From positions 241-64,240 of the IMG/VR virus record IMGVR_UViG_3300045988_124978: DNA of 64,000 nt, one strand, 5' to 3'. The translations under genes and the position numbers were made by a program. The DNA comes from a virus. Of the stretch, positions 1,656 to 55,727 are shown piece by piece; positions within the stretch are counted from its first letter, which is position 1, and each line of letters opens with the position of its first letter. Under the pieces are notes generated by a model. That model ran no database searches and had not been told where the DNA came from. It saw nothing but the letters and a program-made list of their open reading frames with translations.

Positions 1656-2789
1656 ATGATTAAAGGACAATACGACCAAAAGGCTTATGATAGTTCTATT
1701 CCTGGGGCAAGTGGTGTGGGGGGGCAACCTTCTACGCCATCTACTGAAACGGATAGCTCTGTGAACACTGAGGAGACTAAGGATCCGAAGACTGATGTTG
1801 CTCCACCTGCTGACAAGCAGGTTGGGGTGTCGCCACAGAATAATGCTGATGCACTGATTGGTTACGATCAACAGATTGCGATGTTGGAAAATGAGGCTAA
1901 TGGGCTTAAACCTGAGACCGAGGAGGAGCGCAAGAAACGTGAGAGGCGTGAGAAGTCTCAGAAGATTGTTGCTGCTGTGAGTGATGGTTTGCAAGCGTTG
2001 AGTAATCTTTTCTTCACAACTCGCGGTGCTCCCAACATGTATGACCATGACACGAATGGTCAGCTTTCTCCACTGCAAACGAAGTTGGACAAACTAAAGG
2101 CTGAACGTCAAGCTAATGCTGATAAGTATTTGCAGTATTCTCTGAAAATTGGAGATTTGAGGAACGAGCGTGCTAAGACCTTGCGTGAGATGGAGGCTGA
2201 GCAGGAAAAACGGAAGTTGGCGCGTGAGAAGGCGCAACGTGAGCAGGAGGAGCATGGATGGCTTGCTGCATTGCAGCCCGACAAATTGCGTGAGCAGAAA
2301 GGAAAGGCTGATAAGGCTGGTTATGACGCAGACACAGCTAAGGCTGAGGCAGATAATGCTCCTGCAATGCAAAAAGCTAAACTTGAAACGGAAAAGGCGC
2401 ATAAGGATGCCTATGTTGCTTCTGCTGGTGCAAGTAGAGCAGCAGAAACAAATTCGTATGCTTCGGCAAATGAGCACAATACCAATGCTAGGGGACGTTT
2501 CCAGTGGTGGGACGAGAACGGGAACATGCATTATGCCAAGACCGAAGACGAAGCCATTACTAAGGCTCGCCAGCATGGAACACTTGACAGTGTGACTGTG
2601 AGCACTACGGACAGCACGGACAGTGATGTGGTGGTACGTGGCAAAGTTAAGGGCAAGAAGAACTCCAAGAAGACCACATCAAAGAAGGTGTTCTACCCCG
2701 GAATTAGGAAGAGACCTGCAGCAGCGAAGCCGAGTGGTCGCAAGTCTGAACAACAGTCATATAAAAATACAAAAGAATTAGGATATTAA
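1656..2789 (+). CDS. hypothetical protein, Lys/Glu-rich coiled-coil middle, basic C-terminus; candidate virion/internal protein co-transcribed with giant gene
   Basis: 377-aa ORF ending 3 nt before giant ORF start. Confidence 0.5.
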   Translation: MIKGQYDQKAYDSSIPGASGVGGQPSTPSTETDSSVNTEETKDPKTDVAPPADKQVGVSPQNNADALIGYDQQIAMLENEANGLKPETEEERKKRERREKSQKIVAAVSDGLQALSNLFFTTRGAPNMYDHDTNGQLSPLQTKLDKLKAERQANADKYLQYSLKIGDLRNERAKTLREMEAEQEKRKLAREKAQREQEEHGWLAALQPDKLREQKGKADKAGYDADTAKAEADNAPAMQKAKLETEKAHKDAYVASAGASRAAETNSYASANEHNTNARGRFQWWDENGNMHYAKTEDEAITKARQHGTLDSVTVSTTDSTDSDVVVRGKVKGKKNSKKTTSKKVFYPGIRKRPAAAKPSGRKSEQQSYKNTKELGY

Positions 2790-2792
2790 GAT

Positions 2793-5700
2793 ATGCCATA
2801 CGATAAAATAGACCAACTATATGATGCACTGAAGAAAGATGGTGCAGTCAGCAAGAGCCGTGAGTATTTCCGCAGTAAGATGCTTGCTCCTGGTAAGGAG
2901 GGCTATCAAAACCGCTTGCAACTTTACAATGCTCTGAAAGCGGATGGAGCCATAGAGAGCCCAACCTATGAAGAATTTGGCAAGCGTTTGGGGCTTCATG
3001 CGGTAAACACCGCACCTGTGTCTAAACCTCAGCCTCAAAAGCCTAATACAGATAGTCGTGTTGTGTTTATTAATACGCCTCAAAAGCCAGCGCAAGCGAC
3101 ACCTGCAAAACCGAAACCAACTCCAAGAAAGGCTCCAGCAAAACAAAAGGGAACACCGCTTACGCAGGTTGACAAGCAGAAAATGTTGGCTTTCGTTAAC
3201 AACATGAGGAATGAGACCAATGCTTCGCTTCAACGCTTCAATAACCGCATGGACTACCATAGAGCAAATGCTGGACTGAGAGTGCCTCATGTTACACTTG
3301 GTAAAAAGAACAGCGGTATAAAACTTGGTCAGAATAGTAAGGTTGTTGCTAAGAAACCACAGTTTAATCCGCAGTCAGGCAAGATGGAACAGACCTACAT
3401 CACGGAGAGCGGTAATGAGTACACCGACCGCAACTCTGCTGATTTGGAGCAGAATACCATCGACGCGTACAAGGATAGCATGAGCGTAAGTGGTCAGTTG
3501 CGCGAGGCTTATGCGGAGCGCGATAGATTGGACGAGGCAATGAAAAAGCGTATGAAGGAAATAGACGAACGTCCTAATCAGCGTTTCAACGATTTCATGC
3601 GTGAGTTTGCAGCTTCCATGACACCTGGTGCAGGTCCTGTGGGTGAGCAAGATGCGCGTATGTCGAAGTATGACAACGACGATGAATACATGCAACTCAT
3701 GGCAGCAGCTCGCAAGAACCATCAGACCATTCAGTTATTGGAGGACAAGAAAAACAACCAGATGTATAGTTTCTGGCACTCACTTGCTACAACAGCATCG
3801 AATGGTTACACTTTTTCAGACGGTATGAGCGAGATGCGCGATGCAACAGCCCTGCAGCGTGCATCAAAACATATAGACACGATTAACAAAAAGCGTGAGG
3901 AAGGTAAGACCTTGACGAAAGAGGAGCAGACTGCCGAAGCGGTGCTGAAGAACTTCGCCAAAGATAATGCTATGCAAAGCATGTATGGCGGAGATTATGG
4001 CGCATGGGCAAGGGCTGGTGGCATGACTGCCAATTCTTTTGACTTTATGAAAGACCTTATGCTCAATCCTGGTGCTGGAAGCATAGCTAAGGGTGTTATG
4101 CGCGGAACGGCTAAGGGAATGGCTAAAGGTATAGCTAAGTTGACTGGAAAGGAAGCCGCCAATTTATGGAAGAACGATGTGTTGCGCAGAACGCTGAAAG
4201 CGACAGGTGTGTTGTTGGGTGCTCATACGGCAGGTGCATATGTCAGCAATACAACAGGTATAGGTAGAACATCCGCCACAATGGGAACACTTGCTTCGGG
4301 AGAGGTCGGTGTGGACGACAAGGGTAATTATAAGGTGGAGAACGCTATGGGACTTCTCCCTGCATTTGCTGAGGCTGAGCGTCAACAAGCACGCGAGAAT
4401 GGCTCGGAGATGTTCGGTGAATTCATTCCTGGTGTAGGTGGCGTTGTAAAGAAAGGCTTGGAGAAAATAGGTCTTAGTAAGTTGTCGGGAGCTATGACAA
4501 ACATCGGCAACAAGGAATGGTACAAGCAGTATAGTAGATTGCTTGAGTCTGGCGGTTATAATGGTTTGCCTGGTGAGGCTTTGGAGGAATACGAGGGTTC
4601 GCTTTTCGATGCGCTTACTGGCCATGCCGGGGACGCATGGGACGACATGACGAACTTGCAGAACCATGTGGACATCTGGCTGGGGTGTGCTACCATGGGC
4701 GCACTGCTTGGCTCTGTACCGATGATGATGCAGGGGCACCATACTGCGCAATACTACCGATACAAGCACAACACGGACAAAGCCGACAACCTCGCCTCGT
4801 TCCGAATGACCGCAGAACGCTGGGAACCTCTGCGCGACGAGATTGATAACACAGACAACAGCAAGATGGCGGATGTGGTTACTGGTATCATCAACAACCC
4901 TGATCTTCACGTCGAGGAAAAAAAGGCAGCACTGAACTATGTGCGTAATCTAACTATGATGAGAGGTTACAACATTGCGCAGGTAAACAATGCCAGTGAT
5001 GAGGAGGAAGAGCGTCCTGAGGTGCAGAGCGTGAATGACAGTTACTCAAAAGGGTACGAAACCACGGAACCACAAGACATGAACGATACGAAGACTCTGC
5101 TTGAACTGAAGCGTGAGCAGGTTGCGAAAGAACATGGTATTGAGAATGTGGACGATGTGGACGCTCTTATTGGCGATGATCCTCTGCGCTACATTGAGGA
5201 GCAGAAGCAGTTGGGTAATACGGACAAGCTCCAATCTGTTATTGACTATGCCAATGCAAAATCGGCATACGATGGCATGGTGCAGCGTGTGCAAGATGAT
5301 ATTGACAATCGTGTGGAGGAAAGTAATGCGACAGTTAATAGCCGTGTTAATCGCCATGACGGAATGATACACCTTGCATCATTGAAGTTGAAGAACGAGG
5401 ACGGAACGGATAAGAAAGTGTATATTGTCAGCGGCAATGTAGTGATGTTCAATGACGGAAAGGGCGTTGATAGGGAGCAATCCGACAACACGATTGTTAT
5501 CCGTGATGTTGAGACTGGCGAGATGAAAGTAATTCCGCCAGACCTTATCCGTGGCTTGGACGCAGCCGTAGACCCCGAGGAGGAGAAAGCGAGAGCAAGG
5601 GAAGCAATCATTGAGGAGATGTCACAGACCGCAGCAAACAACGTGGACGGTGTGGTGTCTTTCAATGAAGGTGACACCTATACGTTGACAGAGGAGAATG

Positions 5701-8700
5701 GTGAACAGACACATGTGACGCTTGTTGCCAACGAACAGGGACTTGTGGACAATGGGGACGGAACTGTCAACGTAACTGTTGATGGTCAGAATGTTGTGCC
5801 TATGAGTATGGAGGAAATACAGAGTGGCGTGGATGCCACTAATATGGCTCGTACCATGCAAGCAGAAAAAGAACGTCAAGCTAATGAAAACGCACCAAAT
5901 TCAGATGAAAGTGTACAGAATGATGGCGAAAGTGTAGAAGAAAAGCCCGATGGTGTAGAATATGGCGTGAATGACACCTTTACGCTTCTTAATGGTGAAG
6001 ACGAAATCATTCATGGAGAGGTGCAGGGTGTTAGTGATGATGGTGTAGAAATCCGCACGGACGAGCCTTTGAACGGAAAGCGTGTGCAGATTATCCCTGC
6101 CGAGGAGTTTGAAGAAATGGTCGAGAGCATCAATGATGCGGACGGCAATCAAGTATGGGCGAGAGAATATGCCGAAGACACGGAAGATACGAATGAAACC
6201 GAGGAAACATCAGATAATTCCGTAACGCAAGACAATGATGTTGCTCCTGTAACTCCGACAGCGGATGAACTTGTGCGTATGGCTCGTGAAGGTAATGAAC
6301 TTGCACAGCATCAACTTGAAGCGCAAGGTGTGGAGTGGGAAGAACCTTCCGAACACCAGCCTACCGCATTGGAGCGTGTTCCCATCAACGAGGCAACACA
6401 GGAACCTATGTTTGAGAAGGCAGACCGCGAGACAGCCCTTGATGCGCTTAATGAACTTACAGGAGGTAATGAGGAAAATACTTCGGCTATTATTAACGCA
6501 CAGGTTGATCAAGCTACCAAAGCTCTTGAAACTTTGAAGAAGAAGGCCCCGAAAAAGAAAGCTCCTGCATTGACGGGTTCGCCAATGGAAATGTTGAAAG
6601 CGCAGAAGGAGGCTGACGATAGTTACAACACTGCCATTGAGGAGTATAACGCACAAGTAGCCGCAGCAGAAGAGAATCTGAATGCCTGGACGCGTATTTA
6701 TTCGCTCATGGGTGACCGCAAGCGTGCTGCACGTGAGCAGTTGAATGCAGAGCGTAATGCTATGGATGAGCAATTACATGCTGAGGCTGTAGCTAAATTG
6801 GAGGGAAACAAGCGCATTGCAGCTGAGAAAGCAGCCGAGCAAGCCGAAGTTGGCTCTCATGCCGTGAACCCTAAAATAAAGGGAAAGTGGGATGGTGCTA
6901 CTAAGGTTGAGGGCAATCCTAACGCTATTACTCTTGCAGATGGTTCAACGATCCGTGGTCACTACGTCCTCACTGAGGCAGGAGCAGCCACAGCCAGCCA
7001 TGACGTGAACAATGCCTACGAGCCTACTGAAGGTTTCCCCGTTGATGAGAACGGAGAGAGCGTGAATGACCGCGACTATAAGCGTGACACGGACGCACAA
7101 CGCATTGTTAGGGATATGGCAGACAGCTACGATAGCAGAGCTTTGCAGACACCTGTTATTGTTAGTAAGGATGGTGTTGTGCTTTCGGGCAATAACCGCA
7201 CTATGTCGGGAGAGATTGCAGCGAAGAACGGCACAGACAAGGCGTATGTGGAACACTTGCGCGAGTTTGGATCTATGTTCGGTTTCACTCCTGAGCAGAT
7301 TGATGGTATGCAGCATCCACGTGTCGTCTTTGTTCCTGATGAGGAATTGCCTTACGATGCAAGTACGTTTGCACGCTTCAATGCTGAACAGCAGAAGAAG
7401 CAGAGCAAGCCAGAGCATGCCGTGAAGCTTGGCAAGATTGTTCCTGACAATGTATTTGCAAGCATTGTTGGTGATATTAGTCGCTTTGACCGCATGTCGG
7501 ACTACTATGCCGATGGAAATGCAGTATCTTCTGCCATTGGTCAGTTATTGGAGGCTGGTGTTATTAACGAGATGCAGTTGCCGGAGCTTCGCACTGGCAA
7601 TGCTTTGTCGGCAGCAGGTAAGGAACTTATCGAGAACACACTTATAGGCAAGGTCTTCCAGGCTTCGCCCGATGCCGTGCGTCAAATAATCAGCACACCT
7701 ACGCTTCGCCAATCTGTTGTTATGGGATTGAACGAGATTTCCAATAACCGTACACTCGCCAAGAGCGACTATGACCTTAGCAAGGAATTGGCAGCAGCCG
7801 TTAATCTTGTAAATCGTGCCAAGTCAGAGTCACCCGAAATTTACAAAGAAGGTATGCCTGTATCTCCTTACGGCAGACAGCAAGGTTTGTTTGACGATGA
7901 ATACGGAGATAGCCGTGTAACTGATGGCGTTACGCTTATACTTGCTGACATATTGAACAGCGGTAAGCCGAGCGACTTGCGCAAGTTCCTTTCAATATAT
8001 AATAATGAAGCTGCTTCACCTGCAAGCGGTCAGTTGGACATGTTTAGCGGTGGGGTGACTTCAAAGGAAGAATTGTTGAACCGATTAAATGAATATTTTA
8101 GAAATGCAACACCAAAAGAACAACAAGCAATCGTTGATGCCTCAGTCGCAGAACGAAAGCAGAGAGCAGAAGCAGCTGCGCAAAATGCAGATGGCTTTGG
8201 ACGCGATGGAGAAGAGCCAACCGACATACAAGGAGAAAGTAATGGCGGAGTTTCAGAAGCACATGTAGGTTTGAATGATGACGAGGCAAATGAACTTTTG
8301 TCTCGCATGGAAGACAACACGTCAGAAATTCCACAAATGGAACTCAATCCGACTAATTGGATTGAGCAGTTTGGTGAAAATGGTATGGTGTCAACCCCAT
8401 TGGGTAAAGTAAAGATGGGTGAAAACCAAATTGCCAAGTTGTTTGAGAAAGGACGTAGCGAGCAGTTTGGCATGATAAAGCCTACACTTGAGCATCCGCA
8501 CGTTATTGTTGAAGTTCCATCAGAAGCCAGTGATGGCAATACGGAACGTGCAAGTTCGTTACTGTTCATAAAAACTTTCAATGGAACAAACGGCAAAAAA
8601 GTGTATTACTTCAAGTCGGTAACGGTAAAGAAAGACGGATTGGAAGTCAGCGTTAGCAGTCATTATGACCGAGCCAAACGTGTGAAAGAGGCGTTGAAAA

Positions 8701-11700
8701 AAGGGAAGTTGCTATACCGATTTGACGGTGGCGCACAGACCGAACGTCACCCTGCTGACGTTTCTGTGACAACTTCCCCAAAAAATACGCAGGGGAATGA
8801 TAATATGGTTTGGAAACACGCCGATGATGTTTCTGATGCCTCAGACGTGGCACAAGGCTTATACTCGTCGCAAGGGAATGTGTCTGACCTCGCTACCGAG
8901 GGCACGGATGCGCCTCAAACCAGTATGTCAAATAATATTTGGTCTGCTTCCGAAGTGCAGAATGACAACTCGGTGGTTGTCAGTGACGGTTTGCAGTCTG
9001 AGCCTATCACCGAAAACAGCTCTTCCTCTAACGGAGTTCCGTCCAAAAATGAAGTCCATTCCGTACCCGCATTGGGAGAAGGTACTAACACCGATACCTC
9101 CGAAGTTAATAGCGGTCATTCAGAGGGTGTAACCGCGCCAGCAGGAAACTCTTCAAAGACTTCTTTTGGCAAAGTTATAAATAAACAATTATCTCTGCAA
9201 GAAAATGGCGAAAAATCTTCTGAAAATGAAGGTGAAGCACCGTTGTCTGCCCAGATTGAAGCAGCCTCAGCCAAAGTGAACACTGAGCCTACCGAGGCTC
9301 AGAAGAAGGCAGGCAACTACAAGAAGGGGCATGTGCAAGTAGGTACGTTCGACATTACCATTGAGCAACCGCAGGGCAGCGTGCGTAAGGGCACTGATGC
9401 TAACGGCAAGCAATGGGAAAGCAAGATGAACAACACTTATGGCTACATTCGTGGTGCAGTGGGTGTTGATGGCGACCATATAGACGTGTTCCTCTCTAAT
9501 GATATTGATGGTTGGAACGGACGCAAGGTGTTCGTCGTTGATCAGTACAACCCCGATGGTAGCTTTGACGAGCATAAGGTTATGCTTGGTTTCAATGATG
9601 CTGACGAGGCTAAGGGCGATTATCTTGCCAACTATGGAAAAGGTTGGGAGAAAGGTCGTAGGATTGACGTGTCTGCCGTGAACCTCGAAGACTTTGAAAA
9701 GTGGATAGCATCGAGCAAGCGTAAGACTAAGCCTTTTGCAGAGTATGTAGTAGTGAAGAAAGATACTGTGGGTAAAAGCGGCAACATTTCTGATGAGGAG
9801 ATTGAAAACGCGGCATTTGCGCTTGGTTTGCATGGTGAGAACCAAACTCTAATGCGCCTTGAATTGGACAACACTCCCGAAAGAGCAAGGCAGATTCTTG
9901 ACAGAGCTAAGAAATGGAATGAAAAGAATGCAGCAAGTCCGACAACATTATCGAAAGATGAGACGACCTACACCATCACTCCTTCAACCTACACCAACAA
10001 GAAGGGAAAGACGAGCAATGTTTCTCTCCTTACCTTTGACCATGATTTGACAGCCGACCAAGAACGTGCCGTCAAAGAGTTTGCCAAGGAGAAATTGAGC
10101 GAGGGACGCTTTGCTAAGTCGCGCGGTTGGAAAGACCGTGAGAGTGGTGGTTGGATGTTCCGTAGTGAAGAGGACGCACGCAAGGTCGCTGAAATGGTTG
10201 GTAATGAGGAAGCCGTTGCGGATAATCAGCCGTTGACAGCGCAAGAACTCCGCGATGCTGTGGAACCTAAGAAACCAACTGCAAGCAAGAAGCCTGCAAA
10301 CCGCGTAGAGTTAGCAGATGTGGCAGAGCAAAAGCCGTCAGAGCCGACTAAAGCAGAGCAACCAAAGCAAGATAGAGAGAAGAAACTTGTCATTACTGAT
10401 GAGATGAAGCATGATGAGGATATTCTTCGTGAATTGCTTGGTATTGACGATGATGAGTTGGACGGAGGCATGAAATTCCGCGACCCTGATGCAATGACCT
10501 CTCAACAGAGACGTTTTGTGTATAATGCAGGTGTGAACTACTCTTTGGGATATATTGACCAAGGCTTTGTGAAATTCCCCGAATTTGCAAAGGCAATGGT
10601 CAACCGTCTCGGCTATAAAATCAAGCCGTGGTTGAAATCGTTTTATGAGGGTGTAAAACGTATTCCTGGTTACGACCAATCAATATTTACTCCTACAGAG
10701 GAGGTTGATGCCTTTGACGTGGAGAACTTCGACAAGCCTACCAAGGACGTGATGGCACAAGCCAACATGATCGTTGAGGAAGGCAAGGCACAAGTGGCCG
10801 CAGAAAAAGCAAATAATGAATTAAAGGAAATAAGAAATGAGCAACGAAAAGAAACCGAAAAGCAGACAGCAGCAAATACAGATGCTGTTGCAGCAGAAGC
10901 AAAGTCTGTTGCAAGCGAAGCAACGGCTCTCGCAGAAACTTCAAGCGACGAGCAAGCCCTCACCGGAGCAGCAGAGCGAGTAGATGAAACCCTCGACAAG
11001 GTAAATGAGCAGCTTGCCCTACTTGGCTACTATGAGGCTGACGAGGTGGAGAAGGACTACAACGAGGCATACGGCTACATGCGTAATGCCGAGAAGAAGG
11101 CCGTCAAGGATGCAGCCAACCTTGCAAGCCAGTTGATTTCTGATTTGAACCTTAACCACTATGAGGCTTCTCACTCAAAGCAGACGGATAAGAAAGGCAA
11201 TCGTAAGAAAAAACCACTTGCAGTTTCCAACATTTCCCCTATTGGAGGTGATGTGTCTATACACCTGCCATTAGAAGAAGGACGCGAGCTGTATCTGACA
11301 ATAGGCGTTGAGCCAAGAGCAGCCAAGGGTGTAGATGGCTTTGGAGGCAGCGACCTTGAAGTTACTCACATCATGTTCCGTGTTGACCATCCTGAAGGCA
11401 CCGGCAATGACCGCTACGGTAGGAATGTCTTCGTTGACAGCAATGTTACGTATTCTGACCTTCTGAAGCAGGTGCAGCGTGAAACCTACAAATATCTTAT
11501 AGGTAGTGGCGTGACCAATGAAGGAGAGTATGCAGCAGGTGACGAGGTGCAGTATTCAACCGATGGTGGCCGCACATGGACTGATGCAGTTGTAGTGCAG
11601 CCTAACGATGAGGGCGGCATCCGCATTGACACCGGCCTTGCTCCTGTCATGTGGGTTAATGCTCACCCAGACCAGTTGCGTCATAAGCCGAGCGAGTCAG

Positions 11701-14700
11701 CCGAGCCGAAGCATGAAGCCGTTGGCGACTTCTACGAGGATGGTATTAACGAGAATGCAGTTGCGGCATTGCCAGAAGACACTGCCATACAGCTCCATGT
11801 TGTTGACATTCTCAATCCGGGCATGACCGACCATTCAATGAAGTCGAAGATCGAGAGCCTCAACACATTGCTTCCTATGATTTCAGACAAGAAATTGTCG
11901 GAACTCGACAAGGAGTATGGCGACGACAAGGATATGGGCACCCATATCAAGGCAGAGGTGGCGAGACGTGCCAAGGATGGCGGCGTTCAGCCCACATCAT
12001 CAGAGAAACCAGCAGACAAGCCAAAGCCTGCATCCAAGAAAAAAGCAACTAAGAAAGTTAAACCAGAGCAGCCTGTAGGTGATTTGTTTGCCGGGCTGTT
12101 TGATAATACATCAGACAATGGATTACAAGGAAATGATGAAGCGGTACGCACCGAAACAGTGCCAGCCGACAATAGTGGACAACAGCAAGGACTACGAGAA
12201 AGCCAAGGAAGCCCTCGCAAAACAGCTGCACAAGAAGGTGGAAGACCTGACGGAGGACGAGGAGGACAAAGCACTGGCAAAGATAGGGCTGTGTCCGCTG
12301 GACTTCATGGACTGACCCAGCCGAAGAACACACACAACAACCATTCAGAGCGTGGCGCAGACCATGCCCCTACTTCGGTGAATGGCAGAATAGAGGCCAA
12401 TATCAAGGCTATTGAGTTGGCGCATGAATTACTTGAGAGCGGTGAGACAGCCACTCCCGAGCAGATGAGTGTGCTTAGACAGTTCAGTGGTTGGGGTGGT
12501 CTTGGAGCCGCTTTCAGCGACGGAGGCTATGACTGGAAACAGCGTGAGCGTAACAAGAAAATACGTGAGTTGCTTGGAGAAGAAGCCTACGAGCAAGCCG
12601 TTATGAGTGCTAACAGTGCCTACTACACCCCTGCATACGTTGTTGATACACTTTGGGACATTGCAAATCAGCTTGGTTTCAAGGGTGGCAACATCTTGGA
12701 GGGTTCTGCAGGTATTGGCAATATTTTGGGTCAGATGCCAACAATGGTAAGCGAGCGCAGTAACATTCACGCCATTGAGATAGACGGCACATCTGGCGGC
12801 ATTCTCTCATTGCTCTATCCCGATGCCAAGGTGGAGATACAAGGTTTTGAGCAGACACGCATACCTAATGGCAGTGTGGATTTGGCTATTACCAATGTAC
12901 CTTTCGTTACTGGGTTGCGTGTGAATGACACCACAGGCGACAGTGACCTTTCCAAGAAGTTCCACAATATCCACGACTTCTGTATAGCCAAGAATGTGCG
13001 TAAGTTGCGTGAGGGTGGATTGGGTATCTTCATTTCTTCAAACGGCACACTCGATAACAGCAAGGCTTTGCGCGACTGGGTTGTGAACGAGGGAGGTTCG
13101 GACTTCATCGGAGCATTCCGCATGAACAATAAGACCTTTGGCGGTACAACCGTCACGTCGGACATCATCGTTATCCGCAAGCGAGTGAATGGTCAAAAGT
13201 CGGCACAAGCTATTGACGTGAGCACAATCAGCGGTGAGCGTACAGCCGAATATGAAGAACCAGGCGCACGCAAGGCTAAGCAACTCTCCATGGACTACAA
13301 CAAGTATTTCATTGAGCACCCCGACCACATGGCAGGTGAAATGCGCTTTGCATTTGAGAAAGGTGACACATTCAGACCTACGAGCAAGGGACTCTACCCG
13401 GTAAGCGGTAAAGACCAAGGCAAGATGTTGGCTGACTTCGTTAAATCGTTCACTGAAGAAGATAACAGCCAAATGACCGCCACAGATCACCACGATGTTT
13501 CACTTGTGCTTGATGCGTCAGCGGACGGCAAGAAACTTGGTGAAATGTATATGAAAGACGGTAAGATTGTTTTGGCCAGCTTTGGCGGTTACTATCCTCT
13601 TGAAGTAAACGACAAGAAGATAAAGGGACATACTAAGCAAGAGTGTTTTACTGCTTATGCTGCCATCAAGACAGCTTTGGCTGATGTAATGAAGTATCAG
13701 ACAGAGAATGAGGATAATGAAGGACTAAAGCCATTGATTGCCAAACTCAACAAGGCATACGACAGTTTTGTGAGCACATACGGTCACTTCACAAAAAACA
13801 ACCAATTAGCGTGGTTGCGTAATGATGTGGACTATCCAAATGTATTCTCGTTAGAGACTTATAAGGAGCAAGGAGACGGCAAGGGAGGCGTTGTCAAGAC
13901 CTACGATAAGGCCGATGTGATGAAAGGCCGTGTTGTGGAAAAAGAAATCGAACCGCACCCAGAGAATGTTAAGGACGGTGTTGTTGTAAGTATGTTCAAG
14001 AACGGACGCATAGATGTTCCTTACATTGCAAACCAACTCGGAAAGAGTGAGGCGGAAGTAAAACGCGAAATCATTGATAGCGGACTCGGTTTTGAAGACC
14101 CGACAACACGACAGATGGAAGTATCATACCAATATCTGAGTGGAAACGTAAGAGAAAAGCTGAAACAAGCAGAGGCCAACAATGAGAATGGCGAATACAG
14201 CAAGAATATCAAGGCATTGCAGGATGTAGTTCCTATGAATATTCCTGCACACTTGATAGACTTTACACTCGGTTCGTCATGGCTTGACCCAAAACTATAT
14301 GACGAGTATGTGAAAGAGCGTACCGACATAGACGTGCATTTCACAGCAGCTGGTGGTACATGGTTCATGAAAGCCCCGACCTATGGTGTGAACGTTGAAA
14401 AGAACCGCGCAATGGGTATTGTGAGTGAAATGCTTAAGAAAACAATAATGGGTCATGAACTCATTGAAGCTGCTATTCAGAACAAAAGTATTACTATTTC
14501 GCGTACGGAAAAGCATTATGATGGTACAACGGAAACCATCACCGACCGCGAGGCTATGGCAGCATGTGCAGCCAAGATAGATGAGATACGTCAGGACTTC
14601 AAGGATTGGGCGCGAGGAAAGATGCAGCGTAACGCGGACTTGTCAGCACGCATAGAGCAAGAGTATAACGACCGCTTCAACAACTATGTTCCTATGAGCA

Positions 14701-17700
14701 TACCTGAAGACTTTGTACCTGAATACTTCGGTGGCGCAACACACAAGTTCAAGATGCGCCCACACCAAGGTAAAGCCATTGTCCGAGGTACGATGCAGCC
14801 GTTAATGCTTGCCCATGAGGTTGGTACTGGTAAGACATTCACCCTTATCTCCACCGCAATGGAGATGCGCAGACTCGGCACGGCACGCAAACCTATGATT
14901 GTGGTACAGAATGCTACCGTAGGACAATTTGCAGCCTCAGCCAAGGAACTCTATCCAAATGCCAAGGTGCTTGTGTTGGATGATAACGATCGTGACGCAG
15001 AGGGACGCAAAAATTTCTACGCCAAAATAAAGTACAATGATTGGGATATGGTAATTATTCCTCAGAGTACATTGGATAAAATTCCCGATAGTGACGAGCG
15101 TCAGATGCAGTTTGTGCAGGATAAGATAGACGAGAAGATGCGTGTACTTGAGCAGATGCGTGAGGCTGACACCAACGGTAAAGACCCTATAACAAGGCGT
15201 GCAGAAAAAGAATTGGCAGATCTGCAAGTAGAAATGGCTGAACTGTCAGAAGAAATTTCGAAGAAGCGCACAGCTAATAACGAAAAGAAGAAAGCTGTTG
15301 CCAAGCAGAACGCAGCTGTTAAGGCGCAGGAAATGCTCGAGCGTAGCACGGATGATGTGGAGAACTTTGACGATATGGGCATTGATGCCCTACTCATTGA
15401 CGAAGCGCACGAATACAAACACCTTGGTTTTGCTACAGCCATGCAGCGCGGTGTGAAAGGCGTTGACCCTTCATACAGTAAGAAGTCGCAAGGCGTGTAT
15501 TTGAAGACGCAAGCCATATTGGAGAAGAACAATGGACGCAACGTTATCTTCGCCACAGGTACGCCTATCAGTAATACAGCAGCAGAGATTTGGACTTTCA
15601 TGCGTTACCTCATGCCAAAGGACACCATGAAGGAATACGGTATTTACTACTTTGACGACTTTGTGCGCAACTTCGGTAATATACAGCAGATGCCCGAGTT
15701 CAAAACAAATGGCAAGTTCAAGGAAGTGAACCGATTTGCAGGATATGTGAATTTGCCTGAGTTGGTTCGTATATGGTCGAGCGTATCGGATACGGCATTA
15801 ACCAAAGACCAGACGGAGCTTGTTGAGAAAATACCAGAAATGGAGGGTGGCAAGGCGCAGGACATTTATCTACCACAGACACGCGCATTGCGCAGCGTAA
15901 TGAAATATGTACGCAAGCAGTTGGACGATTTCGAGCAGATGAGTGGCAAGGAGAAGAAGGAAAACAGCAGTATACCTCTCACCATGTATGGCATTGCTCA
16001 GAGAGCAGCTGTTGATGCACGATTGGTACAAGTAGATGCTGAGGATGATCCAAGAAGCAAGACCAACGAAGCTGTGCGCCAAACTTTGCGTTCGCTGAAA
16101 GAAACGAACGACTACAAGGGTACGGTAGCCATCTTTGCTGACAGTTACGAGAACAAGCATAGCGGTTTCAACTTGTATGAGGATATCAAGAAAAAACTAG
16201 TTTCGCAAGGTGTTCCTGAAAGCGAAATCGTTGTGATGAAGTCAGGCATGAAAATAAAACAGAAGCTTGACATTTTCGACAAGGTAAACCGAGGCGAGGT
16301 GCGTGTTATACTCGGCAGTACTGCTACCCTTGGAACTGGTGTGAACATACAAGAACGTCTGCACACCCTTATCCATCTTGACGCGCCAAATCGCCCAATG
16401 GATTACACGCAGCGTAACGGACGCATCTTGCGACAGGGCAACCTGCACAAGCAATGGAACAAGCCTGTTCGTGTACTTCGTTTCGGTGTGGAAGATAGTC
16501 TTGACGTAACTGCATATCAGCGTTTGAAAACAAAAGGTGCGATTGCTGATAGTGTTATGGAGGGTGACCGACTGATGCAAGACAGCATGAACAACCGTGT
16601 GCTTGAAGAGGAAGAAGATGTGTTTGGCGACACTGTTGCTCAACTCTCAGGTAGTGAGTACGCTCTACTGAAGAACAATGCGGAGAAGAATGTGCGCAAG
16701 TATGAGAGCCGTAGGAAGCAGTGGGAAGCCGACCAAGTTTATATCCACTATGCCAAACCAAGGATCGAGGGACAGATAGAGGCAGCAGAGCAACGAGCAG
16801 AGGAAGCTAACGCACACCTGCATGCAGTGCAAAAGGCATTCCCCGGTGGTAAGTTCACTGAGATAACTGTAGGCAAGCTAAAATTTGCTTCGGTTGATGG
16901 CATGGCAGACTTCATCAAGGAACACAACAAAAAGATTCTTGATGTGGTAAAGGAAATGAAAAAGACACCTGTCACTAAAACTCAGACACAAACACTCACC
17001 TTATCATTGGGAGGTTATGACTTCGTTGTCAAAACAGAAATGTCACGAGAGACGGTGAATAATGGTGGGTCGTTGTTTGCCGAGATACACCGTAAAATGA
17101 GCTATTCATGCCCTGAACTTGGACTGAATGATGTACCTGTAAAGCAGTCGCTATTGCGCAACGCCATTGAGGATATTACCGAGAATGTAATCACAGGCAA
17201 GGATTTTGCTGAGCGTGTCGACGTTGCCACACGTATGATACAGCACGATAAATCAGAGTTGGAACAAGTAAAGCAGCGTGAAGGTAAACCATTTGAGTTT
17301 GAGAAGGAACTTGAAGAAGCCAAGCGTCAGTTTGAGGAATATTCCGAGGCCATGAAGGTAGAAATGGCAGAAAAGGAGAAGAAGTATGCCGAAATGGACG
17401 CAAGTGTTGAGGCAGCTACTGATGTCGTTGCAGACGATGAGGACGAAGCCGACGATGGTAACAGTAAACATCGTATGCTTGAAGATGATACACCTAATGT
17501 AATGGAGAATGATTCTAACGCGATGGTGGATCGAGTAACTGAGTTGTCAGAACGTCTTCACACTCCTGTACGCATCATACGTACTGAGGAAGAAGTGGCT
17601 GCTTTGCCGAGTGCGCGTCAGCGCAGAATGAAGGGTAGCTTTAATCCTTTGACAGGCGAGGTGACTATTGTTGTTCCCAACAATGCTAACATGGCAGACA

Positions 17701-20700
17701 TTGAGAATACGTTTGTGCATGAGGTTGTGGGTCACGATGGTTTGCGCGTACTGTTCCCTGATGAGGCGAAGCTGAACAATGCTCTTGATGAACTTTATCG
17801 TGTATCGAATGAAGGTATTCAGCAGACCATTGACCGCATGGCGCAGAAAATGTACGATGCCGAGGTGGACCGCATACGTGAGAAGAAGCGCAAAGAGCAT
17901 GAGGCAAAGGGCGAGGATACAAACGCTTCATACTATGCTGACATGGCTGAGGCACATGCCGAGGCGAGCAAGAAACGCGAACAGTTCAAGCGTGATGCCA
18001 CCGAGGAATATGGTGCCGACCTTGCAGGACGTATTGGTGAAAAAGGCTTTGAGCAGATGAGTGCTGAGGAACTTACCTTCTGGGGTAAGTTGAAAGCCAT
18101 GCTCCAAAAGGCTCTACAAAAATTGTTGGATGGATTGAAAATCCCCGGCAGAAGAAAGTGGGGGGATAAGGACTGGGCATTTGTGCTGCATGAAGCTTAC
18201 AAGCGTAAGAAGAATGGTGGTAAGCCTACTGTGTTCGATGCAGCTGATACTGAGGTTATGCGCAGGAAAACAGGGTTTGGAGATGTGATGTTCAGTGAGA
18301 ATAGACGTTCTGGAGGTTCTAGGTATATCGAGGATATGAAACAGAAGGTTGAAGAATTGTTTGAAAAAGCCAGGACAGGAGAGTTTGTCGGGAAACCTGC
18401 AAGCATCGGTCGGCTTAGCGCAGATGGCAAGGTATACTTGGAGCAATTGTCAGGATTGCATTTCAAGGAATATGTAGACTTTGTTCTCAATCCTTCGGAT
18501 TTGAATCACATCCGTGCTGATCACTATGGTCAGAATGAAAAGGATAAGGGTAATAATATTCCTTTGACTGATGAGGATATTCAGAATATGGTGGACGTGC
18601 TGAACCAGCCTGACGGCATACTCTATGGCATTGATAAGAATGATGGACGAAAGTTGTTCTTCTTCTTGAGAGATGCAGGTAACGGATTGTATAATCTGAC
18701 GGAAGTGTGCAGTACAAAAAAAGGAAACCTTACTGCAAAGAGTTTCTTTAAATCAAAAAAGAAAGGTATCGACCAGCGAGTTATGGAAATTAGACAATCC
18801 CTACTCCCTACGTCCGTAACGTACTCTGGTGAATCCCTTTCTTCGGATGCAAAGATACCGCCTTTGTTTGATATTAACGAAGTTTCTGACGAAAATGTTT
18901 CAGATGAGGGCATTATGTTCAGTGATGGTAAGAATAAGACCGGTGAGCCAAAGCCAATAGGACACAGCACATTCGGAAGCGTGTACAACCAGTTCAAGGG
19001 CAAAGTTCTTCAAGCCGTGAAATTCTTGCTCAATCACGAAAGCGGAGATTTGCTTGGTGTTTTCCATAGAAATGATGTAGGAGATATTGATATGGTTTGG
19101 GGTGATGAAGGTGGCGGATTCTGCCATATTCTGAACAAGCATATCAACGACAAGGACTTTCCTACTGTCAAGGATTTGGTATCTCGCATAGAAGACATCA
19201 TAAACAAAGGAGAGGTTGACGAACGACATTCTAATGCCGACAAACTTGTATTGGTGAAGGATGGTTACCTTGTTACGATACGTCGTAACGTAAGAGAAAA
19301 GGGCATAAAAATAGCCGACAAGAACTGGGTTCTGACGGCTTATAATAAAGATGCACCTGCCACCACCAAGGCTCCCGTTGATGGCACTTATGGGAGCACG
19401 GCTGTCGCTCCCGGTACATCTTCGGATGCAAAGTTAGCAACAAAGTCTGAGATTAACGAATTTTCAGACAATAATGTTACAGATGATGGCATTATGTTCC
19501 GCGACGGTGACAGTGAGGAGTATGACAAGGCAATGGCGCGTGACATTTATGAGCAGCGTGTAAGACGTGGTATGTTCCAAACGCAAGAAGCTGTGCAAGA
19601 TAGTATGCTTGGACTGAAGGAAGCTATGGACGCGATACTGAAGGCTGAGGATGAAGATGTTTATATAGAAGACGTGGCAGGATATGAGAATGCTTACCTT
19701 GGCGAGAATCGCCTATCTTCTGTTAATCAGGCTGAGTGTTCTGCCTTTGCGCAAACTTTGTTTAAGCCTTTGCTCGAGGAAGTAGCTAAACTTGCTAAGA
19801 CTGCTGACGAACGTGCAGAGTTGACTGATTACATGATGGCTAAGCATGGGTTGGAACGTAATCAGGTTATGGCGCGGAGGGCTGCTGAGAAGGATGCTCG
19901 TTCGGAGTTCTCTGCAGAGTTGCTTGCTGCTCAGCAGGCTGTAGACAATGATCCGTTAGACCAAGATGCGATTGATGCTCTTGATGATGTGACGCAGCGA
20001 ATGCAAGATCGTGAAGATGAGCTTTACTTGAAGAACCGCGAACGTGACTTTGCTGGTCTTACCGCTTTGACAGGAATGAACAATGTGCTTGATGCGGAAG
20101 CAGAGGCGCAACAAATGGTATCTGACTACGAAAGTAACCATTGGGTTCCTGTTTTGTGGAACAATGTTAAGGCTGTAACAAAGGCTACATTGCAGAAGAC
20201 ATACGAAAGTGGACTCATTAACAAAGCAACATACGACGACATCAGCGGAATGTATGAGACTTATATCCCTTTGCGTGGCTTTGACGACCAAACAAGTGAC
20301 GAGGTGTATGCTTACTTGGCTGATAAGCATAGTGCATTTAATGCTCCTATCAAAACAGCTAAGGGTCGTAAAAGTAAAGCTGACGACCCATTTGCTAATA
20401 TGGAGGCTATGGCTGAAAGTGCGATTATGCAGGGTAACCGCAATGTGCTTGTGAAGCAGAAGTTTTTGAACTTTGCTTTGAACCATCCGAGTGATTTGGT
20501 TAGTGTGAGTGATTTGTGGTTGTATCATGATGATGTGTTAGATGAGTGGCAACCCATTAACACGGGTGGATTTGTTGGTACAGAGGCTATTGAAGAAGAT
20601 GACAGTCCTGCTGAAGTAGAGCGTAAGATGCGTGATTTTGAAGAAGCGATGGAAAATGCTGCAAAAGTTGACCCCGACCATTTTAAGAAGCAGAAGGATC

Positions 20701-24702: not shown

Positions 24703-26832
24703 TTAAATTGAAGCTTCAGAAACAGGTGTATGATTCTTTGTAAATGTACATGCAACGATTGGCACCCATGATGGCATTTCCATTTCATAATAACAGATAT
24801 GAAGACCGATAGCACGCGTCATAAGCAAGTCGTCGTGTTTACCTGTTATAGCTCCATACGCACCATTCTGTTTGCGCTCATAGGTATTGTATTCATCAAG
24901 GCAACGTTTGTCACGCTCGATATACAGACGTTCGCGAACCACTTTAATAAGCGTAGATATAATCATCGGCTTTGTTGATATGTTGGTGTGGAACCCGTAT
25001 TTACGTGGCGCACCTTCTCGTATCTCATCAGCGGACTGTTTACGCGCGTAGAGGTTGGGATAAATATCCGAAATCTGATTGAGAATATATTGCGATTGGT
25101 CTCCACCTTCCACCTGACGTTCCTTGTCGTGAGTTTCTAAGGTGTTTGATTCAATGACAAGAAGAGAGTTGTTGTAGAACGCTGCTATCTGTGCAGCACG
25201 CCAAGCGAGGCGGTCAATGTCGCAGTGTCCGTACCATTGTGCAACCACAGATGGAGGTTCGCTACCATCAATCATACTAATGCGGTCGAATACCACGATC
25301 ACAGACCAGTCAGCCTTATTAGAACGTCCACCCACATCTACCACTGTAAGATAACGATTCTTAACTTCGTAATCATCAAATTTTTCGGGCATTGCCCATA
25401 TAGATAACAATCCTTGTTTGTCATCACGAAATCTGAGATTAGAGAGCGCGTCTTTGCCTTCGTCTCCATCGGCATACACATCGCCAATATATCGAGGTGG
25501 GATGCAGAACTTTTCAAACTTCTTTACTAAGTATTTGTCGAAAACCATTGAACCAGAATGGACGAAAGCCTCTACATCGTCAGAAGGGTACTCCGAAGCC
25601 ATTACACCAAAATCCGCTCTACCTGCTCTTTCTTCCACATACCAGTTAATAGCCTCTAATGTAGCCCCTTTTTCCCACAAAGACCACAAATATTGTCCAC
25701 TTTCTTCACGGTTTGACGGAACGTATGCGTTTTCTCTGTTCGCGTATAGTTTTTGGGCAAACTCTTTTTTCTCGTCCGTAGATGTGAAAGGTTTAGAGTA
25801 TTGCTCAATTTGGAACCATGCAATAAATAACGCTTCGTACTGAGACTTAATAGACGGATCTGCAGCATCCGTGTATTCGGTGTGAAAGAAATTACCTGTA
25901 CCATTAGCTGTGCTTTCCATCACGATCATCGTAAAAGGTTCGAGCAGCATACCAGAGCATGCAGAACGAACAATATCTTGTGGCGACTTTCCATCCGTTT
26001 TTTTCCACAAACCCACCTCTGACAAGTGAACAAGAGAATAAGCACCACCACGACATCCGTCAGGACGCTCAGCAGTACCTACCTTAATTTTACAATTACG
26101 TTGTGGAACACGATGCGTAGAACCAGACTTACCTACGCCTACAAGTTTGGGCTCGTTTTCGGAATAGGTTTCTCCTAACTTATGAAGGAACTCAACTGGA
26201 TATTTGCTAATCATAAGGTCGAACATATCCTTAATTTCGTCAGAAGCCGTACCCTGGTGTGCAATGATAAGCGAATTAAGTCCCTTTCGATGGTTGAATT
26301 GAAGCCATGCCATATAGAGTTGTGTGGTTGTTGAACCACCCCACTGACGTGCTTTCAACAAAATAAGTCGAATTGGTTGCCGTGCTTTTCTCTTCGCTTC
26401 AAAGCGCGATACCAAAATGCGCTGCGGATAGTAAAGTCGGAACAGCACGTCTTTACCAGCCTTCTTGTTGTGGATATATACGAGCGTTGCAGCCCAGAAT
26501 GGGAAATCGTGTTTGAAGCGTAATCGTATGAGTTTACGCGACACCTTGACATAATCTATTTCGTTAGATGTTACACCAAGTACAGATGTCAGAAATTTAT
26601 CAATAGAGCCAGCCTTAACGAGTTTTTCGACCATTGGTATATCCATCATCTCTACAGGGAGCCATTGGACGGGTATGGCAAAATCGGAGATACACACACG
26701 CACACGCTCTCCGATAGACCCCTCTCCTGTAATAGGGTCGAAGTGCGCAAACATTACGCTATTCCTTCGATCGTTCTCATTGAGCAGCTGTGCAATTTCT
26801 GTATCTGTTGTATTGATTCTCATACCATCCAT
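24703..26832 (-). CDS. terL: terminase large subunit
   Basis: 709 aa; P-loop-like LKARQWGGSTTT, Walker-B-like LIIAHQ...SDE, C-terminal acidic nuclease-like VVDVGGRSNKAD; typical size and position. Confidence 0.75.
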   Translation of the reverse strand: MDGMRINTTDTEIAQLLNENDRRNSVMFAHFDPITGEGSIGERVRVCISDFAIPVQWLPVEMMDIPMVEKLVKAGSIDKFLTSVLGVTSNEIDYVKVSRKLIRLRFKHDFPFWAATLVYIHNKKAGKDVLFRLYYPQRILVSRFEAKRKARQPIRLILLKARQWGGSTTTQLYMAWLQFNHRKGLNSLIIAHQGTASDEIKDMFDLMISKYPVEFLHKLGETYSENEPKLVGVGKSGSTHRVPQRNCKIKVGTAERPDGCRGGAYSLVHLSEVGLWKKTDGKSPQDIVRSACSGMLLEPFTMIVMESTANGTGNFFHTEYTDAADPSIKSQYEALFIAWFQIEQYSKPFTSTDEKKEFAQKLYANRENAYVPSNREESGQYLWSLWEKGATLEAINWYVEERAGRADFGVMASEYPSDDVEAFVHSGSMVFDKYLVKKFEKFCIPPRYIGDVYADGDEGKDALSNLRFRDDKQGLLSIWAMPEKFDDYEVKNRYLTVVDVGGRSNKADWSVIVVFDRISMIDGSEPPSVVAQWYGHCDIDRLAWRAAQIAAFYNNSLLVIESNTLETHDKERQVEGGDQSQYILNQISDIYPNLYARKQSADEIREGAPRKYGFHTNISTKPMIISTLIKVVRERLYIERDKRCLDEYNTYERKQNGAYGAITGKHDDLLMTRAIGLHICYYEMEMPSWVPIVACTFTKNHTPVSEASI

Positions 26833-53866: not shown

Positions 53867-54066
53867 TGTAGTTTATTTTTAAGTTTATCGATAAGTTTTC
53901 TGATGCACCATGCACGGCACGAATTGCGCAAGCCTTGCTGTTGATCGTAGAGTGCAGCTGCATCGTTGAGATACTTGATAACCTTTTGTAGGTCGGTTTT
54001 GCAGAGGTCAGCCATCGTCGTCCGGATTGAGGAAGAGTGACGTAAGCTGATCGAAGTACATTTCAT
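53863..54066 (-). CDS. hypothetical small protein
   Basis: 67 aa. Confidence 0.35.
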   Translation of the reverse strand: MKCTSISLRHSSSIRTTMADLCKTDLQKVIKYLNDAAALYDQQQGLRNSCRAWCIRKLIDKLKNKLQ

Positions 54067-55471: not shown

Positions 55472-55727
55472 CATACGCGTTGATGGTTTGCGTTGATAGT
55501 GTAATGTCGTAACCGCGAGCAAAGGCTTGTTTGCGCAAGTCTATGCAAGACAGTGTGCAGTGTCGAGCTTCCTTTGATTGTGCTCCCAATCCTGATGAGC
55601 AACGCACACCCCCCACTAATCCGCCACAGGTATATCCGTATGGTCCTGATAGCACAACGAATGGGCAGAGCCGACGTAGGCTTTTGAGTAGGGATATTTG
55701 TTTTGTTTTAGAGAGTTTCTTGTTCAT
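55467..55727 (-). CDS. hypothetical small protein
   Basis: 86 aa. Confidence 0.4.
   Translation of the reverse strand: MNKKLSKTKQISLLKSLRRLCPFVVLSGPYGYTCGGLVGGVRCSSGLGAQSKEARHCTLSCIDLRKQAFARGYDITLSTQTINAYG

Follow-up and report, generated by a model that had tools for sequence, protein, structure and literature searches.

A DarB-type methylase-Snf2 dyad within a giant polyvalent protein of a Bacteroidales phage

Introduction

How might a temperate phage shield its DNA when it enters a new host? The question is raised by a 64,000-nucleotide stretch of DNA from a temperate phage of gut Bacteroidales (positions 241 to 64,240 of IMG/VR virus record IMGVR_UViG_3300045988_124978; hereafter the window), 31% of which is filled by one giant, uninterrupted open reading frame (ORF) of 6,603 codons. 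Within the protein that this frame encodes lies a module in which a DNA methyltransferase is joined to a Snf2-type motor. In both enzymes, the catalytic motifs are intact and strongly conserved, and the predicted folds are confident. By its sequence, we assign the module to the ‘DNA methylase-helicase dyad’ of polyvalent proteins, that is, to the DarB family (Iyer et al. 2017; PHROG 10089). The dyad is probably of the DarB type in function as well: delivered by the virion, it would methylate incoming phage DNA in cis as a means of anti-restriction.

The architecture itself is not new. It was published in 2017, the nearest phage is already annotated accordingly and thousands of relatives exist. 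Here, we describe the module and its conservation, compare it with P1 DarB and other known systems, and weigh the functions that it may have. Residue numbers refer to the giant protein and nucleotide coordinates to the window.

A methyltransferase and a Snf2 motor in one module

The module matches known families far beyond chance. In particular, PHROG 10089 (‘DarB-like antirestriction’) is found on three consecutive pieces, with E-values of 1.5e-167, 4.8e-138 and 7e-278. A preliminary description, made from the letters of the sequence, had proposed a gamma-class N6-adenine methyltransferase followed about 600 residues later by a complete superfamily 2 (SF2) helicase core, in the domain order of P1 DarB, and the motifs it named lie where it placed them. 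On the methylase side these are motif I, EGSAGIGN (residue 3303, nucleotides 12699-12722), and motif IV, NVPF (residue 3368, nucleotides 12894-12905). Ahead of them lies motif X, YYTP (residues 3277-3280, nucleotides 12621-12632). The order X-I-IV without an intervening recognition domain is the gamma-class arrangement.

Profile and structure comparisons agree with this class. A methylase profile built from nine family sequences matches BsaXI (7e-11), EcoKI HsdM (3e-9), CamA (8e-9) and TaqI (7.5e-7), and also LlaBIII (9.7e-6), LlaGI (2e-4) and BrxX. With the single sequence, PADLOC returns MTase_II (1.5e-7) and orphan-methyltransferase models (about 1e-7). The AlphaFold2 model of residues 3190-3600 is confident (predicted local distance difference test, pLDDT, 90.5; predicted template modelling score, pTM, 0.85), and its best PDB matches in Foldseek are N6-adenine methylases: Type I HsdM, PacII, BsaXI, CamA, BpuSI, BseCI and TaqI. 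The Pfam matches expected from the preliminary description were found in part. That is, SNF2-rel_dom and Helicase_C were recovered, but N6_Mtase did not match the single sequence, and the methylase call rests on family profiles, PHROGs, PADLOC or the fold.

The second enzyme begins 643 residues after motif IV, counted to its Walker A motif GTGKT (residue 4011, nucleotides 14823-14837). A DEAH box (residue 4203, nucleotides 15399-15410), motif III, TGTPISN (residue 4255, nucleotides 15555-15575), and motif VI, QRNGRILRQG (residue 4540, nucleotides 16410-16439), complete the core. Pfam identifies SNF2-rel_dom (4.7e-11), Helicase_C (8e-13) and ResIII (1.1e-7) on the ATPase, and SNF2-rel and Helicase_C are also returned when the whole giant protein is searched. 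A sequence search of the PDB finds INO80 and other remodellers. The AlphaFold2 model of residues 3580-4620 (pLDDT 85.6, pTM 0.85) has Snf2-family double-stranded DNA translocases as all of its top 50 Foldseek matches, with TM-scores up to 0.80; they include Mot1, SMARCAD1, CSB, Sth1, Chd1, SNF2h, ISW1 and INO80. The SF2 core is thus complete, and the ‘helicase’ is more specifically a Snf2-type motor. The high pTM also indicates that the region of about 400 residues before the motor packs on it as one body.

The preliminary description had delimited the segment at 12380-16600 (residues 3197-4602). Its start holds (about 12375), but its end falls short, because the conserved unit continues for some 300 residues to about 17492. 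The conserved module therefore covers window 12375-17492, or residues 3195-4900, and is made up as follows, with the giant frame first:

2793 to 22604, plus strand: giant ORF, a phage-type polyvalent protein with the module (ORF list, translation, Pfam)
12375 to 12647, plus strand: helical N-domain, LPD36-like, with GWGGLG and YYTP (alignments, helical in AlphaFold2)
12648 to 13217, plus strand: gamma-class N6-adenine methyltransferase catalytic domain (family profile, AlphaFold2 and Foldseek, PADLOC, alignment with DarB)
13218 to 13472, plus strand: small beta-hairpin/helix domain packed on the methylase (strands and helices in AlphaFold2, model residues 289-362)
13560 to 14747, plus strand: dyad-specific pre-helicase domain of about 400 residues (conservation 0.58-0.74 in 51 relatives, AlphaFold2)
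14748 to 15578, plus strand: SNF2 ATPase lobe 1 with GTGKT, DEAH and TGTPISN (Pfam, PDB match to INO80, Foldseek)
15579 to 16109, plus strand: insertion between the ATPase lobes, helices and beta-sheet (AlphaFold2, model residues 684-860)
16110 to 16592, plus strand: SNF2 ATPase lobe 2 with motif VI (Pfam Helicase_C, aligns with DarB 1483-1603)
16593 to 17492, plus strand: C-terminal extension travelling with the dyad in Bacteroidales (ends of tblastn blocks, conservation 0.4-0.56)

The N-domain carries GWGGLG at residues 3233-3238 (nucleotides 12489-12506) and is modelled as helical with pLDDT above 86; Pfam gives no LPD36 match on this stretch. The small domain behind the methylase is probably the Pfam family WH_1 (PF28553) recorded on homologous fragments, an assignment to 13218-13472 that we infer, as the position of PF28553 within the relatives is not given. 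It is followed by a disordered linker (residues 3540-3590), where conservation dips to 0.35 and AlphaFold2 shows disorder at model residues 371-387. The pre-helicase domain is modelled with pLDDT 80-95 and packs on the helicase (pTM 0.85); its C-terminal part aligns with DarB from residue 662 to the helicase start. It probably corresponds to DUF8437 (PF28554) of the relatives, to judge from the listed order of families on them.

Two inserts, at residues 522-603 and 684-860 of the 3580-4620 model, interrupt the motor; the one between the lobes (684-860) is typical of Snf2-family enzymes. Lobe 1 bears a coiled-coil insert at about residues 4100-4185. Multihelical inserts have been described in the SNF2 families of polyvalent proteins (Iyer 2017, PMC5512222). 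No family could be assigned to the C-terminal extension (16593-17492). Its boundary is set by the tblastn blocks, which terminate at about residues 4880-4908 in nearly every locus, and the alignment with Bcep22 gp75 extends to residue 4859.

Conservation of the module in Bacteroidales

Relatives were gathered by a scan that took one genome per species. This gave 58 loci, nearly all in Bacteroidales, from the families Prevotellaceae, Bacteroidaceae, Muribaculaceae, Tannerellaceae and Rikenellaceae. Among them are loci of Leyella stercorea (94%), Prevotellamassilia timonensis (93%), Bacteroides congonensis, Parabacteroides distasonis and Muribaculaceae. Six loci (L010, L013, L019, L049, L062 and L064) come from metagenome bins labelled Eggerthellaceae, Wujia, Oscillospiraceae, Eubacteriales, Clostridia or Staphylococcaceae. 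As all of the relatives nearest to them are prophages of Bacteroidales, they are probably mis-binned phage contigs.

When the whole giant protein is used as a tblastn query, the dyad is the one block found in every relative. The stretch of about residues 3080-4900 appears in essentially every locus, at roughly 49-91% identity, and the C-terminal block (about residues 5560-6600) in most complete loci. The flanks of the dyad are mosaic: InPase, the ParB region and PBECR1 cassettes are present, absent or replaced from locus to locus. Complete giant ORFs in related prophages range from 4,551 to 7,474 residues, which makes 6,603 residues ordinary for the lineage.

An alignment of 51 Bacteroidales relatives (52-92% identity to the window) supports the motifs of both enzymes. 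Invariant in all 51 are NVPF, the G, G and K of Walker A, DEAH, FATGTPISN, and the Q, R, G and R of motif VI. Each position of GWGGLG is kept in at least 49 of the 51 and, in YYTP, the T is kept in 50 and the P in 51. Conservation is highest over the methylase core, at 0.76-0.85, and over the ATPase motifs, at 0.87-0.94; it dips at residues 3540-3590 and past residue 4640. Such conservation of the catalytic cores indicates that both enzymes are under purifying selection. Farther afield, an alignment of modules from ten phages retains GWGG (in most modules), a TP-capped helix [YH]YT[PS], LEPSxGxG, N[PVI]P[FY] and the Snf2 motifs. The pre-helicase region is also widespread: a library of 1.84 billion proteins yields 5,399 cluster representatives with it (3,835 of them at E<=1e-10), and the top 150 matches are mostly giants of 3,000-7,568 residues.

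Relation to P1 DarB and other known systems

The features that define the published dyad are present in the window: a GxGU LPD36 N-domain, an EcoKI/TaqI-like methylase, a C-terminal SNF2 with helical inserts, and collinearity with DarB. The DarB of P1 and P7 (2,255 residues) has the same order of helical N-domain, gamma-class N6-adenine methylase, connector and Snf2 ATPase. BLASTP finds three segments, collinear overall, which bears out the shared domain order previously proposed. The methylase (residues 3199-3463) aligns with DarB 47-274 at 29% identity (E 8e-20), the pre-helicase region and N-lobe (residues 3815-4351) with DarB 662-1200 at 21% identity (E 2e-20), and the C-lobe with DarB 1483-1603 (E 3e-4). 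Motif IV is NVPF in both proteins, and darB likewise adjoins the portal gene, prt, in P1. On the other hand, P1 DarB is free-standing, whereas the dyad of the window is internal to a 6,603-residue polypeptide. Identity is as low as 21-29%, about 30% of the module is matched in tblastn, and the host of P1 belongs to Enterobacteriaceae, not Bacteroidales.

Closer to the module are the giants of Bcep22, PEp14, SopranoGao-SJM3, VvAW1 and Mwe-JY07, which match it at 28-31% identity over 98-99% of its length, a far higher coverage than that of DarB. As in the window, the dyad sits inside a late-gene protein of several thousand residues (Bcep22 gp75 has 4,602), and a second, C-terminal block is shared. 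Still, annotations of the Bcep22-type proteins mention a lytic transglycosylase, whereas the window protein has a ParB-like domain, PBECR1/2/3 and InPase. Moreover, the Bcep22 giant gene stands at the end of the morphogenesis module and that of the window adjoins the portal gene. Unlike Bcep22-like phages, the window phage is temperate and has a Bacteroidales host. The virion location of this group is documented for JC1 gp69, a homologue of Bcep22 gp75 and the second-highest-scoring protein in purified virions (PMC9144972).

The nearest deposited phage is BKO1-TP3, whose gp55 (5,553 residues, PQ571269) is already annotated as ‘DarB-like antirestriction’. The module is 74% identical at the nucleotide and 76% at the protein level, the giant gene is followed by the portal gene, and an integrase lies nearby. 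Identity amounts to 63% for the dyad plus flank (residues 3076-5164) and to 52% for the C-terminal block. Differences lie elsewhere: gp55 is 1,050 residues shorter, identity falls to 29% in the N-terminal third, and some of the internal cassettes are missing or have been exchanged. The paper that reports the isolation of BKO1-TP3, an inducible temperate phage, leaves gp55 undiscussed (PMC12694917).

The module is not confined to phages. Stand-alone methylase-SNF2 proteins of 1,400-2,000 residues are encoded on plasmids and integrative and conjugative elements (ICEs), with about 30% identity over 90-99% of the module. In all, it occurs on 2,129 plasmid records, of which 713 are conjugative. These proteins are labelled ‘N12 class adenine-specific DNA methylase’ (JGI; a label that we take to be COG4646), ‘SNF2-related protein’ or ‘Eco57I methylase domain-containing’. 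Pfam finds on them N6_Mtase/Eco57I, WH_1 (PF28553), DUF8437 (PF28554), SNF2-rel and Helicase_dom (PF28555); WH_1, DUF8437 and Helicase_dom probably cover the connector regions. Stand-alone copies go with relaxases (TrwC is 1.8 kb away in locus L068) and not with portal and terminase genes, and they presumably act on conjugatively transferred DNA. For the window copy, an origin from a conjugative element was rejected, given its portal and terminase genes and its phage-only domains.

A last comparison is with restriction enzymes. The Type ISP enzymes LlaGI and LlaBIII also hold an SF2 double-stranded DNA translocase and a gamma-class N6-adenine methylase in one polypeptide. Their order is nuclease-helicase-methylase-target-recognition domain. 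In the window the domain order is reversed, there is no nuclease, the motor is of the Snf2 type, and the predicted role is anti-restriction instead of restriction. Type ISP enzymes nonetheless serve as the mechanistic model in Iyer 2017 (PMC5512222). We also considered whether the module could belong to a restriction or defence system (Type I, Type ISP, Type III, DISARM or BREX). This was rejected: no nuclease or HsdS family was found in residues 3100-4830 (Pfam, NCBIfam) or 3190-4703 (PADLOC), the motor is Snf2-like by fold, not HsdR/Res-like, and the DrmD matches are generic. DISARM pairs a SNF2 helicase, DrmD, with a methylase, DrmMI, and neither model is matched over its full length at the curated score: DrmD scores 36 bits in NCBIfam against a cut-off of 610, and the PADLOC DrmD model matches only the generic C-lobe (E about 2e-9). 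A DISARM or defence-island setting was likewise discarded, as the context is one of head genes.

The giant protein and its place among the head genes

Beyond the dyad, Pfam recognizes several unrelated domains in the giant protein: InPase (2.4e-52), LPD38 (2.7e-39), PBECR1 (1.3e-17) and PBECR3 (3e-15) and, more weakly, PBECR2 (8.4e-8) and LPD14 (6.5e-8). PBECR2, InPase, DdrB-ParB and LPD38 are restricted to phage-type polyvalent proteins (PMC5512222). Unrelated domains, phage-only ones among them, are thus combined with adjacent portal and terminase genes, as in a phage-type polyvalent protein. NCBIfam gives no match outside the dyad, and no PLxRFG model fired. Residues 1-530, 640-1380, 1510-1850, 2310-3190, 4600-5210 and 5530-6290 match no Pfam or NCBIfam family (in Pfam, noise only).

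The neighbouring genes are those of a phage head:

22663 to 24645, plus strand: portal gene, 58 nucleotides downstream of the giant ORF (phrog_156, E 7.5e-93)
24703 to 26832, minus strand: terminase large subunit gene (phrog_2, E 2.3e-17)

The giant gene belongs to this head-gene cluster. In 37 related prophage loci the portal gene also lies directly downstream of the giant ORF, and in 28 a terminase gene stands beside the portal gene. This adjacency argues for incorporation of the giant protein into the virion.

A ddrB-ParB domain at window 6942-7319 (residues 1384-1509) falls just below the Pfam threshold (4.9e-6, 27.1 bits against a cut-off of 27.6). If real, it would place two components of the P1 Dar system, one DdrB-like and one DarB-like, on one polypeptide. 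A tblastn search of the domain against phages returned two unrelated records and no P1 match, and so no link to P1 DdrB.

The C-terminal block (window 19470-22601, residues 5560-6603) is the second conserved block and is held in common with the C-terminus of Bcep22 gp75; residues 5770-6462 align with gp75 3816-4463 (E 4e-37). It carries LPD38, the motif PLRGF at residue 5826 (cf. ‘PLxRFG’), and the sole strong transmembrane-like segment of the giant protein (residues 6257-6278, nucleotides 21561-21626). The block could serve as the anchor of the protein, either within the virion or, upon ejection, in the membrane of the host.

Two further stretches of the protein deserve mention. At the extreme N-terminus, the tandem motif LY[DN]ALK.DGA occurs twice, at residues 9-18 and 44-53 (window 2817-2846 and 2922-2951). 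This N-terminus is conserved in only about ten related loci. The repeat may be worth comparing with the capsid-targeting signal of P1 DarB. Past the dyad, HEVVGH is found at residues 4976-4981 (nucleotides 17718-17735), within window 17580-18287 (residues 4930-5165). The H, E and H, and also a Glu farther downstream, do not vary among 25 diverse relatives. The region may be a divergent autoprocessing peptidase. A zincin-like MPTase autoprocessing domain is common, not obligatory, in phage-type polyvalent proteins (Iyer et al. 2017).

A proposed function and its alternatives

The proposal that we favour, and consider probable, is that the dyad works in the manner of P1 DarB: from the virion, on incoming DNA, in cis. 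In such a scheme, an EcoKI/TaqI-like N6-adenine methylase would be rigidly coupled, through the winged-helix domain and the 400-residue connector, to a Snf2 double-stranded DNA translocase. The giant protein would be made late and built into the capsid, and on infection it would exit together with the DNA, either intact or cleaved. Driven by ATP, the motor would track along the entering double-stranded DNA while the tethered methylase N6-methylates adenines. Only the phage’s own DNA would in this way turn refractory to Type I and other N6-methyladenine-sensitive restriction before the host could cut it. A methylase-motor model of this kind was proposed by Iyer et al. (PMC5512222), who also note a strict coupling of methylase and SNF2 across the family.

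Packaging, ejection and in-cis anti-restriction of the window protein are suggested by homology to DarB, by the adjacent portal gene and by the virion proteomics of JC1 gp69 (PMC9144972). Capsid packaging and in-cis anti-restriction are established for P1 only (PMC9024508, PMC12707154). In P1, there are about 40 copies of DarB per virion (PMC9024508), the Dar proteins are reportedly ejected along with the DNA and active at infection (PMC12810830), and they act only in cis (PMC12707154). Deletion of darB renders P1 sensitive to EcoB and EcoK (PMC11109961). Packaging of DarB involves a 30-residue N-terminal capsid-targeting signal and needs DarA, Hdf, DdrB and Ulx (PMC9024508, PMC12810830).

Several points weigh against this proposal. 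At the level of sequence, Pfam and NCBIfam find no methylase family on the methylase segment alone even at E<10, whereas P1 DarB passes Pfam N6_Mtase and Eco57I. In motif IV, a Val replaces the first Pro of the canonical NPP[YF]; the same NVPF in P1 DarB marks it as a family trait, not a defect. No target-recognition domain can be assigned in the module. Of the P1 accessory Dar proteins, DarA, Hdf, Ulx and DdrB were not found, except for the sub-threshold ParB domain. A protein of some 700 kDa (estimated from 6,603 residues) would need unfolding or cleavage to pass the tail, and Pfam, including its polyvalent-protein metallopeptidase, matches no family to the putative HExxH peptidase region in any of the 25 relatives. 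As for function, the literature searched yielded no report that a protein of the DarB family methylates DNA. One paper states that the mechanism of DarB is ‘not defined’ and shows plasmid-based darB anti-restriction assays to be confounded by a DNA-mediated effect (PMC11109961).

The lack of a methylation report and the undefined DarB mechanism also bear on a first alternative, which we judge unlikely: protection could be physical. An ejected Snf2 translocase would coat or patrol the DNA and block or strip Type I (and BREX-like) complexes, with the methylase serving mainly as a clamp that binds DNA or S-adenosylmethionine (SAM). Remodellers of the Mot1 and CSB type displace proteins from DNA, and both, with other remodellers, are among the fold matches of the motor. 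That Dar physically obstructs access to DNA has also been put forward as a hypothesis in a review (PMC12707154). Yet NVPF and the SAM motif stay unchanged in all 51 relatives and across ten phage lineages, which is hard to explain without catalysis, and the methylase and SNF2 are strictly coupled across the family (Iyer 2017, PMC5512222).

The head-gene setting admits another explanation, to which we give only a slim chance. The module, near the portal, could methylate progeny DNA in the producing cell at the time of packaging, much as an orphan methylase does. Its gene lies in the late/head cluster beside the portal and terminase genes, and protection limited to packaged DNA would also look in-cis. 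Such action fits poorly with the P1 Dar proteins, reported as co-ejected and active at infection (PMC12810830), and with the PBECR RNases and InPase of the same polypeptide, which are sensible only inside a new host (PMC5512222). An ATP-driven translocase would, moreover, be without fuel inside the capsid.

Slimmer again are the prospects of a role in DNA internalisation, in which the Snf2 motor, as part of an ejected protein complex with an anchor in the envelope, would pull the genome in, like the RNA polymerases of T7 and N4, and methylation would be secondary. An anchor is conceivable in the single strong transmembrane-like segment (residues 6257-6278) within the block shared with Bcep22 gp75, and Snf2 enzymes are forceful double-stranded DNA translocases (PMC5512222). 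But stand-alone copies of this dyad are frequent on conjugative plasmids and ICEs, whose DNA is imported in other ways, and P1 darB mutants still infect non-restricting hosts (PMC11109961). Finally, we dismiss as practically without credit the reading as chance motif matches or relics in a decayed, non-functional domain: the failure of the Pfam and NCBIfam methylase models on the single sequence and the non-canonical NVPF speak for it, but it is refuted by PHROG E-values down to 7e-278, the family-profile matches, two confident AlphaFold2 folds with their Foldseek results, motifs invariant in 51 relatives, and the presence of NVPF in DarB.

Within the proposed virion-delivered methylation, a more specific version can be entertained tentatively, though we lean against it. 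The dyad would be the invariant core of an ejected protein of 4.5-7.5 thousand residues whose other cassettes (ParB-like nuclease, PBECR RNases, InPase and domains without an assignment) are freely swapped around it, and it would methylate entering DNA processively and with low sequence specificity.

Other features of the window

Upstream of the giant gene are two ORFs without a known family, 1656-2789 (377 residues) and 1059-1607 (182 residues). The 377-residue ORF stops 3 nucleotides ahead of the giant gene’s start codon. Homologues of the larger ORF occur with the giant gene in 17 related loci and those of the smaller one in 15, and it is possible that the two are accessory or packaging partners.

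The giant gene has a marked purine skew on its coding strand (window 2001-24000), with an AT skew of 0.07-0.23 and a GC skew of 0.11-0.22. As a result, antisense frames stay open, and spurious ORFs of 150-250 residues appear on the minus strand. Two of these, 13038-13493 and 15101-15601, were considered as genes and rejected as spurious, because stops interrupt the first in 41 of 51 relatives and the second in 38 of 55.

Elsewhere, a stand-alone SNF2 helicase (54008-55522, minus strand; SNF2-rel_dom 1.8e-27) is part of a recombination module that also includes a PDDEXK (DUF3799) nuclease and RecT, and whose other genes are at 55730-56431 and 57959-58954, both on the minus strand. It is not a close paralogue of the SNF2 in the giant protein (BLASTP E 0.18). 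An SPFH/Band-7 family protein is encoded among the phage genes (41238-42020, minus strand; E 2.2e-22). Window 40000-64000 had no megablast match among phages, and no tRNA genes were found.

What the finding means

Given the description of 2017 and the existing annotation of BKO1-TP3, the practical value of the finding is limited in most respects. A search of the literature for work on DarB-like or polyvalent proteins of Bacteroides phages found nothing. The description of the dar genes dates back almost forty years. Since the lineage is widespread and BKO1-TP3 is cultured, these phages offer a practical system for settling how DarB-type proteins work.

Among gut Bacteroidales, which carry many Type I systems, restriction-modification is a main barrier both to infection by phages and to gene flow. 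A methylase-translocase delivered by the virion would let a temperate phage cross this barrier in any host that it enters. If the doubtful, low-specificity version of the proposal were true, such methylation would neutralize the many Type I systems of Bacteroidales, and would help to explain why related temperate phages are found across several Bacteroidales families.

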